From an uncultured virus (IMG/VR IMGVR_UViG_3300031413_000586) (taxonomy: Duplodnaviria > Heunggongvirae > Uroviricota > Caudoviricetes), in the IMG/VR virus record IMGVR_UViG_3300031413_000586: a DNA stretch of 56,649 nt; one strand, written 5' to 3'. The notes under the pieces were generated by a model that worked only from the letters and a program-made list of their open reading frames with translations, made no database searches and had not been told where the DNA came from. Made by a program: the position numbers and the translations under genes. The stretch's first letter is position 1. The number at the start of each line of letters is the position of its first letter. Shown here in pieces: positions 16,898-21,587 of this stretch.

Positions 16898-17443
16898 ATG
16901 AAAAAATTAATAGGCTGTGGGGTATTGTTTGCAATAGGGTTATTGACAGGTTGTGTGTCAGATTCTAAATCAATTAATCAAATGACATTACCTTCATTTA
17001 CCAATATGGACGGTCGGTTGATTACTGATTGGCAGCAGAAAACGTTGATTGATTTATTGGATGATGATATAGAAATTGATAGAAATCAGAATTATATTTT
17101 ATTAACAGTCCAAAATGAAAAAGTTTTCAATGACACAGATGCAATAACGCTTAAAGAGTCATTCAAGCGACAACTTGATCAAATCATAAGTGTGGTCAAG
17201 GTTAGTAAGAAAAGCAAGATTAAAGTTATTGTAAACAGCGATGACACATTACCAGCAATAGAAAGTTTTGATCAGACCGCAGAACAAGCATTATTAATTG
17301 CTGATTATATTAAATTTAAAGGAGTTGTCGAAGAAAATGTCACTTTCTTTGGTGTCGGTTCTCATCAACCTTTAGCAGATAATTCTACAAAAAATGGTCA
17401 AAAGATTAATCGTCGGCTTGAAATTCAAATATCAAACGATTAA
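16898..17443 (+). CDS. OmpA-family peptidoglycan-binding lipoprotein (divergent)
   Basis: LTGC lipobox; GVGSHQPLADN..GQKINRRLEI. Confidence 0.8.
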   Translation: MKKLIGCGVLFAIGLLTGCVSDSKSINQMTLPSFTNMDGRLITDWQQKTLIDLLDDDIEIDRNQNYILLTVQNEKVFNDTDAITLKESFKRQLDQIISVVKVSKKSKIKVIVNSDDTLPAIESFDQTAEQALLIADYIKFKGVVEENVTFFGVGSHQPLADNSTKNGQKINRRLEIQISND

Positions 17444-17486
17444 ATATAGTAACATCTAATTCAATTAACTAAGACAGGAGAGAAGT

Positions 17487-18137
17487 ATGCGTAAAATTAC
17501 AGTATTAGCAGTATTGATATCAGCAATTGTAATGGGTGGTTGTACAACAAATCCATATTCGGGAGAAAGTCAAACAGCAAAAAGTGCTAAGTACGGGGGC
17601 TTTGGAGCATTAGGTGGTGCGGCTGTAGGTGCGTTGGCTGGTGGCAAGAAGGGTGCGTTGATTGGTGCTGCTCTAGGCGGTTCAGCAGGTGCTGGATATG
17701 GTTACTATACAGATGTTCAAGAAAAGAAATTGAGAGATTCCTTACAAGGTACAGGTGTTCAAGTAGCCAGAGAAGGCAATAACCTTTCACTTGTAATGCC
17801 GGGAAATATTACATTTGAAACAGGCAATGCAAATATGTCATCTTCATTTTATCCAACATTGAATTCTATTGTCACTGTATTGAAAGAATATAAAGATAGC
17901 ACTATCAAGGTAAACGGTCATACTGATAACTCGGGCAATTCTGATAAAAATCAGGTGCTTTCAGAACAAAGAGCCGCTTCTGTTGCCAATTACATTATAG
18001 CACAGGGTGTGAGTGCCCAAAGAGTCCAATCAACAGGTTATGGATCTCGTTATCCAGTTGCTGATAATAGTTCAGAAAGTGGAAAGCAATCCAATCGTCG
18101 TGTTGAAATACAAATCATTAATAGTCAGCAGGGTTAA
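17487..18137 (+). CDS. OmpA-family lipoprotein with glycine zipper (YiaD-like)
   Basis: MGGC lipobox, Gly zipper, GHTDNSG..NQVLSEQRAASV..GYGSRYPVADN..NRRVEI. Confidence 0.92.
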   Translation: MRKITVLAVLISAIVMGGCTTNPYSGESQTAKSAKYGGFGALGGAAVGALAGGKKGALIGAALGGSAGAGYGYYTDVQEKKLRDSLQGTGVQVAREGNNLSLVMPGNITFETGNANMSSSFYPTLNSIVTVLKEYKDSTIKVNGHTDNSGNSDKNQVLSEQRAASVANYIIAQGVSAQRVQSTGYGSRYPVADNSSESGKQSNRRVEIQIINSQQG

Positions 18138-18139
18138 TC

Positions 18140-18793
18140 ATGTTTAAACTTAATGTTTTATCCACTTGTATGTTAATACTAATGCTGAGCGGATGTACGA
18201 CATCAACCTATACATATACGCAGCAAACTGGATTTATAGATGATGCCGGAAATCCAGTGCCCTCTTCCATTCCAGTAATCGATGCTGGAAGTCAGTCTGA
18301 TATGTCAGCGACTTCCACTGTTGGAAATGGTTTGTTACCTGTGACATCTGTATCCAATGTTGCTTATGATCCAAGCTTTGCAGCTTATGTTGAATCGCAA
18401 GAGTCAGCCATTCGTACTCAATTGGAAAAGACAGGTATGCAAGTTATTAAAAAAGGTGATGATCTCTTTTTGTATATGTCAACCACTGATGCTTTTAGTT
18501 ATAATGGTTATCAATTAACAACTTATGGATACAACACGCTTGATAAGATAGCTTATTTTCTACAAGATTACGACAATAACAAAACGACTTTTCATGTAGG
18601 TGCTTATAATGGTCCTTTTAATAAAGATATGACATTAAATGATATCAGAGCACGAGTGACTACAGATTATCTGTTAGCTAAACATGTAGTTAGTGAGCAA
18701 ATTACTTATTCGACAAACACATCTATTCCATTAACGGGTGTTAATCCTAATGATGGGTACATTGAGATTAAAATAATCAATGTGAACAAGTAA
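18140..18793 (+). CDS. degenerate OmpA-like lipoprotein
   Basis: LSGC lipobox; YVESQESAIRTQLEKTGMQVIKKGDDL matches the YiaD linker; LNDIRARV. Confidence 0.65.
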   Translation: MFKLNVLSTCMLILMLSGCTTSTYTYTQQTGFIDDAGNPVPSSIPVIDAGSQSDMSATSTVGNGLLPVTSVSNVAYDPSFAAYVESQESAIRTQLEKTGMQVIKKGDDLFLYMSTTDAFSYNGYQLTTYGYNTLDKIAYFLQDYDNNKTTFHVGAYNGPFNKDMTLNDIRARVTTDYLLAKHVVSEQITYSTNTSIPLTGVNPNDGYIEIKIINVNK

Positions 18794-19614: not shown

Positions 19615-19643
19615 TTGACTTTTATAATGCTTTATTTTATAAT
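19615..19643 (+). promoter_or_regulatory. sigma70-like promoter of the leader/attenuator
   Basis: TTGACT-17 nt-TATAAT. Confidence 0.75.
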
Positions 19644-19669
19644 TAAAAATATCTAATAGGAATTTATTT

Positions 19670-19726
19670 ATGAACACTTACAATCTTAACAACAATATAA
19701 TAGCGAGAGCCAGAGCAATATCTTAG
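19670..19726 (+). CDS. putative leader peptide MNTYNLNNNIIARARAIS
   Basis: TAGGA SD; codons 10-17 ATA ATA GCG AGA GCC AGA GCA ATA; directly followed by alternative hairpins and a terminator. Confidence 0.7.
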   Translation: MNTYNLNNNIIARARAIS

Positions 19727-19729
19727 TGA

Positions 19730-19817
19730 GCTAATTTCATTGGGAGGGATTAGCATAGCTAAACCCTCTTGGCAGATTGTTAAAAGCCTTTGAGGGGATA
19801 CCTTGAAGGCTTTTTTT
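19730..19817 (+). promoter_or_regulatory. putative transcription attenuator (alternative hairpins plus terminator)
   Basis: GCTAATTTC/GGGATTAGC; GAGGGATTAGC/GCTAAACCCTC; CCCTC..GGC/GCC..GAGGG; terminator 19782-19817. Confidence 0.7.
19782..19817 (+). terminator. rho-independent terminator of the attenuator
   Basis: AAAAGCCTTTGAGG-ggata-CCTTGAAGGC followed by T7. Confidence 0.85.
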
Positions 19818-19909
19818 ATGTCTATAATAGATAGGTTACTGTTCGATCTAAATAAATGTATATTGTTGATTTTAAAGTAAAAAATTTAAAAATAAATTAA
19901 AAAAAAGTA

Positions 19910-19938
19910 TTGACAATATAAAAAAGAGTTGTTAGAAT
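19910..19938 (+). promoter_or_regulatory. sigma70-like promoter of the tRNA array
   Basis: TTGACA-17 nt-TAGAAT with A-rich UP-like element. Confidence 0.75.
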
Positions 19939-19996
19939 GTTAAACATGAAGAGTTGAGATAGAAAATAAAAAAACAAATCTTCTAGATATAAATAT

Positions 19997-20074
19997 GGGG
20001 GCACATGTTCCAAGGGATGGCGAGTTTGCCTTGCACGCAGACTGTGAAGAGTTCGATTCTCTTTGTCTCCACCA
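19997..20074 (+). tRNA. tRNA-Ala(TGC), atypical D arm
   Basis: GGGGGCA/TGTCTCC acceptor with G3:U70, loop CT-TGC-AC, TTCGATT, ACCA. Confidence 0.8.
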
Positions 20075-20081
20075 AATTTAT

Positions 20082-20156
20082 GGGCTGTTAGTTTAGCTGG
20101 AAAAATATCTGCCTTGCACGCAGAAGTACAGGGTTCGAGTCCCTGACGGTCCACCA
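20082..20156 (+). tRNA. tRNA-Ala(TGC)
   Basis: Canonical cloverleaf, TCTGC-CTTGCAC-GCAGA, G3:U70, ACCA. Confidence 0.92.
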
Positions 20157-20171
20157 GATTAGTAATAATAT

Positions 20172-20248
20172 GTCTGCGTAGCTCAGTTGGATAGAGCATC
20201 CGCCTTCTAAGCGGATGGTCGTTGGTTCGAATCCAACCGCAGACGCCA
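20172..20248 (+). tRNA. tRNA-Arg(TCT)
   Basis: Canonical cloverleaf, TCCGC-CTTCTAA-GCGGA, GCCA. Confidence 0.95.
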
Positions 20249-20256
20249 AATAAAAT

Positions 20257-20333
20257 GGGGCTTTTAGTTTAACGGGGAAAACGTTGATTCATAGCGGATC
20301 ATCAACATGGTTCAAGTCCATGTAGCTCCACCA
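20257..20333 (+). ncRNA. tRNA-like RNA with Ala-type acceptor and aberrant anticodon arm
   Basis: GGGGCT/AGCTCC-ACCA (G3:U70), D stem GTTT/AAAC, T arm CATGG-TTCAAGT-CCATG; anticodon arm lacks a canonical 7-nt U33 loop. Confidence 0.65.
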
Positions 20334-20342
20334 GATTATTAT

Positions 20343-20413
20343 GGGGTTTTAGTTTAATAGGAAAACGCTGGGGAAACCCGGAATTGTAAGGTCGAAACTT
20401 ACAGACTCCACCA
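20343..20413 (+). ncRNA. anticodon-less tRNA-Ala mimic (GAAA tetraloop)
   Basis: GGGGTTT/AGACTCC-ACCA, D stem GTTT/AAAC, CTGGG-GAAA-CCCGG, T arm GTAAG-GTCGAAA-CTTAC. Confidence 0.75.
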
Positions 20414-20419
20414 CTTTAT

Positions 20420-20495
20420 GTTCTCATAGCTCAACTGGAAGAGCAATGACCTTCTAAGTCATAGGTTGTAGGTTCGAGTCCTACTGGGAATACCA
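20420..20495 (+). tRNA. tRNA-Arg(TCT)
   Basis: Cloverleaf, ATGAC-CTTCTAA-GTCAT, ACCA. Confidence 0.92.
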
Positions 20496-20501
20496 AATTG
20501 T

Positions 20502-20578
20502 GTCCGTGTAGCTCAGATGGATAGAGCATCTGCCTCCTAAGTGGAAGGTCATAGGTTCGAATCCTATTACGGACACCA
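20502..20578 (+). tRNA. tRNA-Arg(CCT)
   Basis: Cloverleaf, TCTGC-CTCCTAA-GTGGA, ACCA. Confidence 0.92.
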
Positions 20579-20658
20579 AATACGGGGACTTATCTATAAA
20601 GGATAGGTATTATTGAAATCGTTGGGTTGGGATATTCAATAGAATTAAAGTTGTATAT

Positions 20659-20735
20659 GGGATTTTAGCTCAGTTGGTTAGAGCATCCGACTCATAATCG
20701 GCAGGCCGTAGGTTCAAGTCCTACAAGTCCCACCA
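20659..20735 (+). tRNA. tRNA with CAT anticodon, probably tRNA-Ile2 (lysidine, reads AUA)
   Basis: Cloverleaf, CCGA-CTCATAA-TCGG; arm resembles bacterial Ile2; elongator Met not excluded. Confidence 0.85.
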
Positions 20736-20764
20736 ATTTAAGATATTTTATGCTTGGGAGTTAA

Positions 20765-21160
20765 ATGATGGATTATCAAAAGCATATGTTAGATTTAGCT
20801 TGTAATAAAAATTTTAGCGTTGGTGATGAAGTTTTTGTATTGATTGATTACTCATTAGTCTCCGGTTTCATATTAAAAGTCAATGACAAAAGTATTAAAA
20901 TAAAATTGAATGCAAGTTTTGGTGTTAATTCATATGAAAAAAATTGCAAACCAGAAAAAGTAGTTAGAAAAGTTGATTATGCTGTACTAGTTTGGGAATG
21001 CTGGAAAGGGGTCAATGGCCGAGGTGGATATCGATTAGATACAATAATGTATCCAGATTTACAAAAGCCAGTTGATAAAATTAGACCTAATACATATTTG
21101 AATGAAAGTGAATTTGGGGAAGTATCAGATTTTAGTAAAAAGCGGTATTTAGAAGTATAG
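20765..21160 (+). CDS. hypothetical protein inside tRNA array
   Basis: 131 aa ORF, GGGAG SD. Confidence 0.7.
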   Translation: MMDYQKHMLDLACNKNFSVGDEVFVLIDYSLVSGFILKVNDKSIKIKLNASFGVNSYEKNCKPEKVVRKVDYAVLVWECWKGVNGRGGYRLDTIMYPDLQKPVDKIRPNTYLNESEFGEVSDFSKKRYLEV

Positions 21161-21211
21161 TGACAATAAAAAATTGACGATTTTGATATTGTCTGTTTAA
21201 AAAAATATTAT

Positions 21212-21286
21212 GGTTCTGTAGCATAACGGTAAATGCACCCCGCTCATAACGGGATGATTAAGGTTCGATTCCTTGCAGAACCACCA
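21212..21286 (+). tRNA. tRNA with CAT anticodon (Ile2 or Met)
   Basis: GGTTCTG/CAGAACC, CCCG-CTCATAA-CGGG, TTCGATT, ACCA. Confidence 0.85.
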
Positions 21287-21292
21287 ATTAAT

Positions 21293-21414
21293 AGAGAGAT
21301 AGCTTAATGGGAAAGCGGCCTGTGTCAGCAGGTGAGTTACAATCCTTTCAAAGTGTAAATTTTTTATTTATCTTGATTGAGATAGCGATAATGGTTCAAA
21401 TCCATTTCTTTCTG
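21293..21414 (+). ncRNA. tRNA-Asp(GTC)-like RNA with 56-nt variable-region insertion, no encoded CCA
   Basis: AGAGAGA/TCTTTCT+G73, D stem GCTT/AAGC, GCCTG-TGTCAG-CAGGT, T arm AATGG-TTCAAAT-CCATT. Confidence 0.55.
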
Positions 21415-21423
21415 CTTCATTAT

Positions 21424-21499
21424 GGGCTGGTAGTTCAGTTGGGAGAACGCTTGCATGGCATGCAAGAGGTCGTGGGTTCGAACCCCATCCGGTCCACCA
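21424..21499 (+). tRNA. tRNA-Ala(GGC)
   Basis: Canonical cloverleaf, CTTGC-ATGGCAT-GCAAG, G3:U70, ACCA. Confidence 0.95.
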
Positions 21500-21512
21500 A
21501 ATAATTTACAAT

Positions 21513-21587
21513 GGTACTCTAGCATAATGGCTAATGCTATCCGCTCATAACGGATTAATCAAGCGTTGATTCCTTGGATGACTACCA
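21513..21587 (+). pseudogene. degenerate tRNA(CAT), paralog of 21212..21286
   Basis: Intact D and anticodon arms (ATCCG-CTCATAA-CGGAT), mismatched acceptor stem and altered T loop. Confidence 0.6.

Follow-up and report, generated by a model that had tools for sequence, protein, structure and literature searches.

How a phage might adjust the transfer RNA (tRNA) genes that it carries to the needs of translation is the question raised by a locus in a stretch of DNA of 56,649 nucleotides (nt) from an uncultured virus of the Caudoviricetes (IMG/VR record IMGVR_UViG_3300031413_000586), hereafter the window. At this locus a tRNA array is preceded by a promoter (P1), an open reading frame (ORF) of 18 codons, a set of alternative RNA helices and an intrinsic terminator, and the codons near the end of the short ORF are those that the tRNAs of the array are predicted to read. 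Attenuation by a leader peptide is textbook knowledge in the case of amino-acid operons and of one synthetase operon. We consider it likely that the element described here acts as a transcription attenuator of the ribosome-mediated, leader-peptide kind, controlling whether transcripts from P1 extend into the phage tRNA array, and so is a variant of the known mechanism that would be new in controlling tRNA genes. What sequence and comparison provide are its component parts, the correspondence of leader and array, the conservation of the alternative pairings and the folding barriers from modelling; taken together, comparison and modelling indicate that the attenuator is real and probably functional.

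Organization of the leader cassette

All features of the cassette lie on the + strand. P1 (TTGACT-17-TATAAT, 19615-19643) matches the consensus at 11 of 12 positions and would drive the leader transcript. A Shine-Dalgarno sequence, AGGA (19658-19661, a sequence reading), is found 8 nt ahead of the ATG of the leader ORF, MNTYNLNNNIIARARAIS (19670-19729), whose 18 codons are followed by TAG (19724-19726) and then by an in-frame TGA (19727-19729). Codons 10-17 (19697-19720) are ATA ATA GCG AGA GCC AGA GCA ATA, or IIARARAI, and form the putative sensing run. Directly past the stops lies segment 1 (GCTAATTTC, 19730-19738), the partner of which is segment 2 (GGGAGGGATTAGC, 19742-19754); segment 2 is common to helix 1:2 (through 19746-19754) and to hairpin 2:3, the onset of which is 13 nt past the TGA. 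Segment 3 (19758-19773) supplies both the 3' arm of this hairpin (19758-19770) and the 5' strand of the candidate antiterminator (CCCTC at 19764-19768 plus GGC at 19771-19773). Its alternative partner is segment 4 (GCC at 19786-19788 plus GAGGG at 19792-19796), which is also the 5' arm of the intrinsic terminator (segments 4 and 5, 19782-19817), a 14-pair stem at 19782-19814 with a tract of seven T residues at 19811-19817. Past the terminator, an AT-rich spacer (19818-19909; 77% identity to a paralogous cassette) leads to a second promoter, P2 (TTGACA-17-TAGAAT with a TG extension, 19910-19938), again an 11/12 match. A preliminary description of this DNA had reported P1, the Shine-Dalgarno sequence, the 18-codon ORF with its codons 10-17, the terminator and P2 at these coordinates, and the sequence confirms all of them.

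The same description had proposed the mutually exclusive pairings 1:2, 2:3 and 3:4. It was found that these three helices and the terminator helix 4:5 are built solely of standard or G-U pairs, with energies of -9.1 (1:2), -15.1 (2:3), -12.2 (3:4) and -19.0 (4:5) kcal/mol, and the pairings hold with compensatory changes in relatives (see below). Of 200 shuffles, 2 folded at least as well as 19650-19830 (z = -2.55). The region has 40 promoter-like matches and its shuffles have 38.8 +/- 6.2, with no enrichment of such matches as a class; P1 and P2 are distinguished solely by their score and their conservation. At the sequence level, then, the locus has a promoter, a short ORF that possesses both a start codon and a ribosome-binding site, and an intrinsic terminator placed before the genes that would be regulated. 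The Rfam library includes a T-box model as well as leader families; a scan of the window at the gathering threshold returned 11 matches, all of them tRNA (RF00005), with no leader family (Trp, His, Thr, Leu, Phe) and no T-box.

The array begins with a block of tRNA genes at 19999-20735 (+ strand), made up of two Ala-TGC, an Arg-TCT, an odd Ala-like tRNA, an odd tRNA-like gene, a second Arg-TCT, an Arg-CCT and an Ile2-looking tRNA with a CAT anticodon. A second block (21212-21587, + strand) holds a further CAT tRNA (21212-21286), a 122-nt Rfam tRNA match (21293-21414), Ala-GGC (21424-21499) and a degenerate CAT copy (21510-21587). ARAGORN called two Ala-TGC, two Arg-TCT, Arg-CCT, two CAT tRNAs, Ala-GGC and an odd 'Leu-TAG'; 20343-20410 and 21293-21414 were added by Rfam alone. 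The array content first reported thus stands for the Ala and Arg tRNAs and for two CAT tRNAs. It does not stand for the third: the stretch at 21510-21587 was called by neither tool and reads as a degenerate copy of the tRNA at 21212-21286. For the CAT tRNA at 20659-20735, the best match in Escherichia coli is an annotated tRNA-Ile with a CAT anticodon (83.6% identity, E-value 3e-11). Under wobble rules all 8/8 codons of the run can be decoded by tRNAs of the array if the CAT tRNA is Ile2, and the earlier claim that each of them has a decoder there holds on that condition.

A family of cassettes with matched leaders

Positions 23958-56649 of the window are 100% identical, over 32,692 nt, to bases 1-32692 of a 437,043-nt viral record (G001). 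Because of this identical overlap, the two are taken to originate in the same or a nearly identical huge phage, and the window lengthens the G001 record by 23,957 nt. G001 contains a paralogous cassette, in which homology to the window (77% identity) sets in shortly ahead of the terminator and takes in the spacer and P2. On the 5' side of this homology G001 has a P1 of its own, a Shine-Dalgarno sequence of its own and a different leader ORF, MKTTLMTTSYYYSYYSH, and its array encodes Ser-CGA, Ser-GCT, Tyr-GTA x2, Ser-TGA and Ser-AGA (Ser x4/Tyr x2). Inspection by eye of the remaining 11 tRNA clusters of G001 found no such leader.

Further members were sought with the P2 motif alone, the probe containing no leader or tRNA sequence. 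In a metagenome scan this motif returned 10 loci (G001 and nine new ones), and all 10 proved to be such cassettes. Probing viral contigs with a spacer motif yielded 85 stretches; 80 of these were fetched, and two passed the promoter filter, namely G001 and a new locus, L085. A strict 30-nt P2 pattern returned G001 only among the viral contigs; a shorter P2 motif gave five stretches, four of them chance matches without tRNAs. In total there are 12 cassettes, which fall into six isotype classes: Ala/Arg/Ile2, Ser/Tyr, Gly/Cys, Asn/Thr, Leu and Ile/Val/Asp/Met. The 10 metagenome loci have a common layout of a P1-like promoter, leader ORF, hairpins, terminator with T-tract, spacer, P2 and a tRNA array on the same strand. 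The P1 side of one locus (L031) is cut by the contig end; in the 10 other cassettes with the 5' side present, a P1-like -35/-10 pair was seen by eye ahead of the leader, and where the 5' side is intact the leader ATG is preceded by AGGA, AGGAG or GAGGA. In 11/11 cassettes analysed the distance from the stop codon to the T-tract is 71-99 nt, and that from the T-tract to the P2 -10 is 113-115 nt.

The leaders differ from class to class in step with the arrays. In the Gly/Cys class (motif GGCGCGCG), the leader of L027 reads ..VGGCGCGCGR.. ahead of a Gly/Cys array, and that of L029 reads ..VGCGGCGCGCGR.. ahead of Gly/Cys genes and Arg-CCT. The Asn/Thr class (motif TNNTNNNT) comprises L028 and L033, with leaders ending in ..TTNNTNNNTC and Asn/Thr arrays that include CAT tRNAs and, in L028, Lys. 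Leucine arrays follow the leaders ..RLSLLLL.. (class motif LSLLLLL) of L030 and L085, the latter with 11 Leu tRNAs (12 with a later copy past a gap) plus Gln. The leader ..VVIVVSVDMDIIDMDRS of L031 (motif VVIVVSVDMDIIDMD) precedes an Ile/Val/Asp/Met array, and ..SYYYSSYSS of L034 precedes a Ser/Tyr array. Two loci, L032 and L035, have Ala/Arg/CAT arrays and leaders (..IRARAIS and ..IIARARIS) that are orthologous to the leader of the window; in full these are MNIQLTIRARAIS (L032) and MNTLNHNIIARARIS (L035), and both finish with ATA TCT TAG TGA. Five Asn codons in the window leader, for which the window has no Asn tRNA, had been raised as a caveat; they are not conserved in either orthologue and are therefore not part of the sensor.

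When the best window of eight codons in each leader was compared with the cassette's own array, the match was 8/8 in 8 of the 12 cassettes, 7/8 in one and 6/8 in three. Over the last 10 codons the mean match was 0.72 to the own array as against 0.12 to the arrays of other classes, and among the 720 class permutations (with one representative per class) only the true assignment reaches the observed sum. Covariation of leader codons with tRNA content in relatives, which had been put forward as a check, was found at every locus retrieved with P2. Relatives keeping the terminator without the ORF and codon run had been named in advance as the finding that would speak against an attenuator, and the opposite is the case, as each locus has a matched leader ORF. 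The family may be seen as a regulatory module that has been re-addressed in evolution, in which the terminator, spacer and P2 are kept and the leader and helices are rewritten for each tRNA set.

These comparisons bear on one alternative explanation, that the codon run and the pairings are a chance product of AT-rich intergenic sequence beside a terminator. The G+C content of the window is about 30%, short ORFs are plentiful in such DNA, and the promoter-like matches of the region are no more frequent than in shuffles. The codon run is another matter. A search of six frames over about 461 kb (window 1-23957 joined to G001) found a single run of at least seven codons from the set {ATA, GCN, AGR}, and this is the leader run, at precisely this site; about 0.003 runs of eight would be expected. 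Nor would chance account for 12 independent cassettes with matched leaders, for a pairing of leaders with arrays that just one of 720 permutations attains, or for compensatory changes in the helices, and we regard this explanation as extremely improbable.

Conservation of the alternative helices

The helices were compared within two groups of cassettes. The first is a class of five sequences, comprising the Ser/Tyr, Ile/Val/Asp/Met and Asn/Thr cassettes, in which segment 1 takes in the TAA stop codon. Here 95.8% of cells are paired in helix 1:2 (with two compensatory pairs), 88.9% in helix 2:3 (three compensatory pairs) and 80% in helix 3:4 (one compensatory pair), as against 30-60% for control partners slid by 1-3 columns. 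The covariation score of the structure formed by 1:2 and 3:4 was reached by 1 of 500 shuffles. The second is the class of the window, with three sequences. All cells of helix 1:2 (100%) pair here, one UA-to-CG replacement being compensatory and one further change affecting a single side; for helix 2:3 the paired fraction is 90%, and the CCCTC:GAGGG core of 3:4 does not vary among the three orthologues. These patterns indicate that mutually exclusive terminator, antiterminator and anti-antiterminator pairings are under selection, with few compensatory changes in the three-sequence class to which the window belongs.

The leader run can itself pair with segment 3. Shuffles did as well in 4 of 200 cases for the window, in 1 of 200 for L032 and in 37 of 200 for L035, so this pairing is suggestive in the first two and not in L035, and it was excluded from the model described below.

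Ribosome position and the choice of fold

In the mechanism that we propose, P1 would yield a short messenger RNA, and a ribosome would translate the 18-codon leader on it. If charged tRNAs for AUA (Ile2), GCN (Ala) and AGA (Arg) were plentiful, the ribosome would reach the TAG/TGA and mask segment 1 (19730-19738). Segments 2 and 3 would then form the hairpin at 19742-19770, segment 4 would stay free, and with it the terminator (19782-19817) would form and the transcript would end. If those tRNAs were scarce, the ribosome would wait within the run with its front edge short of segment 1; with segment 1 free, helix 1:2 would form first and segment 3 would pair with segment 4 as the antiterminator. 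The terminator would thereby be kinetically blocked, and RNA polymerase would continue through P2 into the genes of the very tRNAs that are lacking. The newly made tRNAs would relieve the stall, which amounts to negative feedback on decoding capacity, and P2 would provide expression independent of the switch. That the leader is translated, that polymerase reads through, which way and how strongly the system responds, and what triggers it physiologically are what we infer here from the sequence and the models.

The geometry of the locus is compatible with this scheme: with the A site on any codon of the run, an assumed front edge at +11 reaches 19729 at most, and segment 1 begins at 19730. The effect of ribosome position was modelled, with the lead ribosome in place, as the height of the path barrier on the way from the fold that the RNA has before the terminator 3' arm is made to the terminator. 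For a ribosome in the run this barrier amounts to 16.2 kcal/mol in the window, compared with 2.7 kcal/mol for one at the stop (11.7-13.7 against 2.2 kcal/mol with hand-defined helices). It is higher in the run than at the stop by 8-22 kcal/mol, and above 40/40 shuffles, in 10 of 11 cassettes. The logic of stalling and stopping set out in the preliminary description is thus reproduced by the barrier model for the window and for nine of the ten other cassettes tested, and the barrier results support a kinetic switch.

When the terminator 3' arm is left off the window transcript, the probability of helix 3:4 is 0.45-0.79 with the A site at codons 10-12, as against 0.03-0.04 at the stops. The copy in G001 switches at equilibrium, with a terminator probability of 0.31-0.65 for stalls at codons 11-14 as against 0.79-0.85 at the stop or without a ribosome. 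A free-energy measure of switching with a 30-nt footprint was above 30/30 shuffles in 6 of 11 cassettes, the window not among them. The same measure with everything 5' of the lead ribosome removed was positive in 11/11 cassettes and above 100/100 shuffles in seven.

A wider role can be imagined for such elements, which we would judge about evenly poised between right and wrong. Modular codon-matched attenuators in huge phages would act as a homeostat for each tRNA set, in which a swappable 'test peptide' gauges the decoding speed of the codons of its array and raises that array alone. Such a homeostat could let a phage sense and correct a poor fit to the host tRNA pool, or losses to tRNA-cleaving defences, one isoacceptor set at a time. 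That anticodon nucleases in particular would be the trigger is speculation. If an attenuator of this kind operates, phage tRNA arrays would be not merely constitutive cargo but genes feedback-regulated by the decoding capacity that they supply. This bears on why large phages carry tRNAs at all, be it for codon-usage matching, for supply late in infection or for escape from tRNA-targeting host defences. The leader would name the codons that the phage monitors, which offers a direct experimental handle, and the cassettes could be compact, programmable sensors of codon-specific translation speed.

Points against an attenuator and alternative explanations

A number of observations, gathered in this section, weigh against the attenuator. 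The first concerns P2, a near-consensus promoter that lies between the terminator and the array in 12/12 cassettes (although 10 of these were found through the adjoining motif). The terminator is accordingly not the sole gate to the array: because P2 lies below it, the array can be transcribed independently of the switch, which would act on P1 transcripts alone. The caveat about P2 that accompanied the first account of the locus is therefore real and general. It could be that P1, leader and terminator are a small gene of their own, making a peptide or a short RNA, with P2 as the sole promoter of the array and the terminator as mere insulation. The presence of P2 in every cassette at a fixed 113-115 nt from the T-tract fits such an arrangement, as do the strength of the terminator (-19.0 kcal/mol with T7) and the equilibrium folding of the window copy, which always yields the terminator. 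It leaves unexplained, however, why peptide and array tRNA content vary together across six classes, and why three exclusive helices leading into the terminator 5' arm are kept by compensatory changes. Leaders within a class also vary in length (18, 13 and 15 amino acids) and in sequence, which disfavours a functional peptide. We therefore think a separate small gene unlikely.

Further points arise from the modelling of the attenuator. Equilibrium folding of the full-length leader of the window yields the terminator whatever the state of the ribosome (P >= 0.94), and an equilibrium switch was rejected for this copy; the switch must therefore be kinetic, as classical attenuators are likewise understood to be. 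Folding of 19650-19830 with ribosome masking, which had been suggested as a check, thus gave a divided answer, as the barrier differs with ribosome position but the full-length equilibrium fold is always the terminator. The window is also undistinguished by the free-energy measures: with the 30-nt footprint its value is 0.7 kcal/mol and 17 of 30 shuffles are at least as high, and with the 5' side removed it is 4.1 kcal/mol and 11 of 100 shuffles are at least as high. The ribosome front edge at +11 is an assumption and carries an uncertainty of about 2 nt. With no ribosome on the leader, segment 1 is free and termination is not clearly predicted, unlike in classical attenuators.

One Leu cassette, L030, has the opposite sign, with a barrier of 5.9 kcal/mol in the run and 12.8 kcal/mol at the stop, and its 5'-removed measure lies within the shuffles (23/100). 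This raises the possibility of a different output, in which efficient translation opens hairpin 2:3 and allows readthrough, making the element a sensor of translation competence, or in which P1 readthrough acts on P2 by occlusion or interference. Transcription from P1 must indeed cross P2, and the hairpin begins just 13 nt past the TGA. The modelled barriers point the other way, being higher in the run in 10 of 11 cassettes and by margins that none of 40 shuffles attained. In eight cassettes (the three Ala/Arg cassettes and the five of the five-cassette class) segment 1 lies at or just past the stop, where only a terminating ribosome would cover it. Readthrough on efficient translation would, moreover, be a positive feedback that silences tRNA genes during tRNA shortage, without evident use. 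An output of this kind seems to us marginally less probable still than a separate small gene.

The remaining points concern the tRNAs and their transcripts. The CAT tRNA at 21212-21286 had no match among E. coli tRNAs. AGG and GCT are absent from the leader, yet the array includes Arg-CCT, and GCT is the commonest Ala codon of the phage. In an RNA run, two near-identical pieces at low depth fell at 20974-21162 and 21225-21386, and the leader was uncovered.

Relation to known regulatory systems

Leader-peptide attenuators of enterobacteria include those of thr (Thr and Ile), ilvGMEDA (Ile/Leu/Val), trp, his, leu and pheA. The phage cassette resembles these amino-acid operon attenuators in its promoter, its short ORF in which codons for several amino acids form a run, its alternative hairpins leading to a terminator and the deciding role proposed for ribosome position. 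It differs from them in that it would control tRNA genes, so that the charged tRNA being sensed derives directly from the product. In addition, the phage element is swappable, with at least six isotype versions, it has a second promoter past the terminator, and its segment 1 lies past the stop codon and would be freed rather than covered by a stalled ribosome. Another parallel is E. coli pheST with its pheM leader, where a translation-apparatus gene is attenuated through a run of cognate codons; pheST, however, encodes an aminoacyl-tRNA synthetase and is cellular, single-valent and without a second promoter downstream, whereas the phage cassette precedes tRNAs.

As is proposed for the cassette, T-box riboswitches choose between terminator and antiterminator according to whether a specific tRNA is charged. 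They do so by binding the uncharged tRNA itself, without translation, whereas the phage cassette keeps a translatable ORF and has no T-box match. The tandem P1/P2 promoters of rrn operons are also similar, in that a regulated upstream promoter and a downstream promoter precede stable-RNA genes; in rrn, control is exerted on initiation at P1, whereas in the phage cassette it would be exerted on termination between P1 and P2. The idea of a leader ahead of the E. coli tRNA-Phe genes was not supported, since the pheV spacer of about 105 nt has no leader and that of pheU is about 106 nt (from annotation only). Searches of full-text literature found no account of leader-peptide attenuation of tRNA genes in cells or viruses, with older subscription papers outside their scope.

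A possible independent case was found in LR745206.1, the 634,780-bp record of an uncultured phage (L026, 2422-2602). Here 24 of the first 25 codons of a leader belong to the amino-acid set of the array, and the leader and a terminator stand directly ahead of a mixed array of 19 tRNAs, with no P2. A copy of the terminator 3' arm inside the ORF could serve as the antiterminator strand. This cassette is not homologous to the family of the window and differs from it in having that strand inside the ORF, in lacking P2 and in serving one mixed array rather than isotype-sorted arrays.

Genomic setting and further features

The window genes are phage-like and encode pyrophosphatase, NUDIX, 5'-nucleotidase and DEDDh exonuclease-like proteins and an ART-PolyVal protein. 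When a 736-amino-acid window protein was compared with phage records by tblastn, nothing above 32% identity was obtained, and no close cultured phage was found. A search of viral contigs for relatives of the 182-amino-acid protein encoded upstream of the cassette found none, blastn with the leader region detected nothing similar in 50,697 phage records, and a scan of genome contigs for relatives of the cassette returned none. There is no sign of stop-codon recoding in ORFs of at least 150 amino acids, which total 112,001 amino acids under code 11 and 115,787 with TAG read as sense. tRNAs with CTA or TTA anticodons (readers of stop codons) and four-base anticodons called by ARAGORN were seen in G001 (375947-376020 and 389162-389237) and in the L030 and L035 arrays.

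Between its two tRNA blocks the array of the window contains an ORF of 131 amino acids (20765-21160, + strand) without a family match and a weaker promoter-like site (21183-21211, + strand) ahead of the second block. The odd genes at 20257-20333 and 20343-20410 have a G3:U70 pair, the alanine identity mark, together with aberrant anticodon loops: one is without U33 (the 'Leu-TAG' call), and the other contains a tetraloop resembling GAAA, with an Rfam score of 43.6 bits. In the corresponding slots of the L035 and L032 arrays the loops read 'atta', 'tta' or 'ta'. These genes could be suppressors, quadruplet decoders or decoys. The Rfam tRNA match at 21293-21414 scores 39.5 bits and has an insert of about 50 nt, and ARAGORN made no call there.

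Several features recur in the cassettes themselves. The spacer of about 90 nt between terminator and P2 (window 19818-19909; L027-L036, L085) is kept in all of them, and its conservation goes beyond what a promoter UP element would require. ATG AAG AGT and a stop codon (TGA, TAG or TAA) follow directly past the P2 -10 (window 19945-19956) in 11 cassettes, L085 being without the stop; this stretch lay in the search pattern, and it is probably incidental. In four cassettes (L028, L033, L034 and L036) a palindrome encloses the -35 element and spacer of P1, as does AGCTTGAATAA-TTT-TATTCAAGCT in G001. Such a palindrome could be the terminator of the upstream gene or an operator; it was not seen at the P1 of the window.

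In G001, a second SYYYSYY codon run at about 236171-236191 has no start codon, terminator or tRNA array nearby and may be a remnant or due to chance. Two similar, structured-looking and G+C-richer stretches of about 250 nt (approximately 385100-385375 and 388300-388565) lie in the same record between a promoter and tRNA-Pro and tRNA-Asn, and two repeats (381750-382064) lie ahead of tRNA-Cys. As to the contigs, L028 and L029 share one of 677,834 nt, and the Ser/Tyr cassette L034 is on a metagenome contig listed as 1,859,102 nt, a length far above that of any phage genome known to us. Finally, three consecutive genes of the window (16898-18793) encode OmpA-domain proteins, one with a glycine zipper, which is unusual cargo for a phage.

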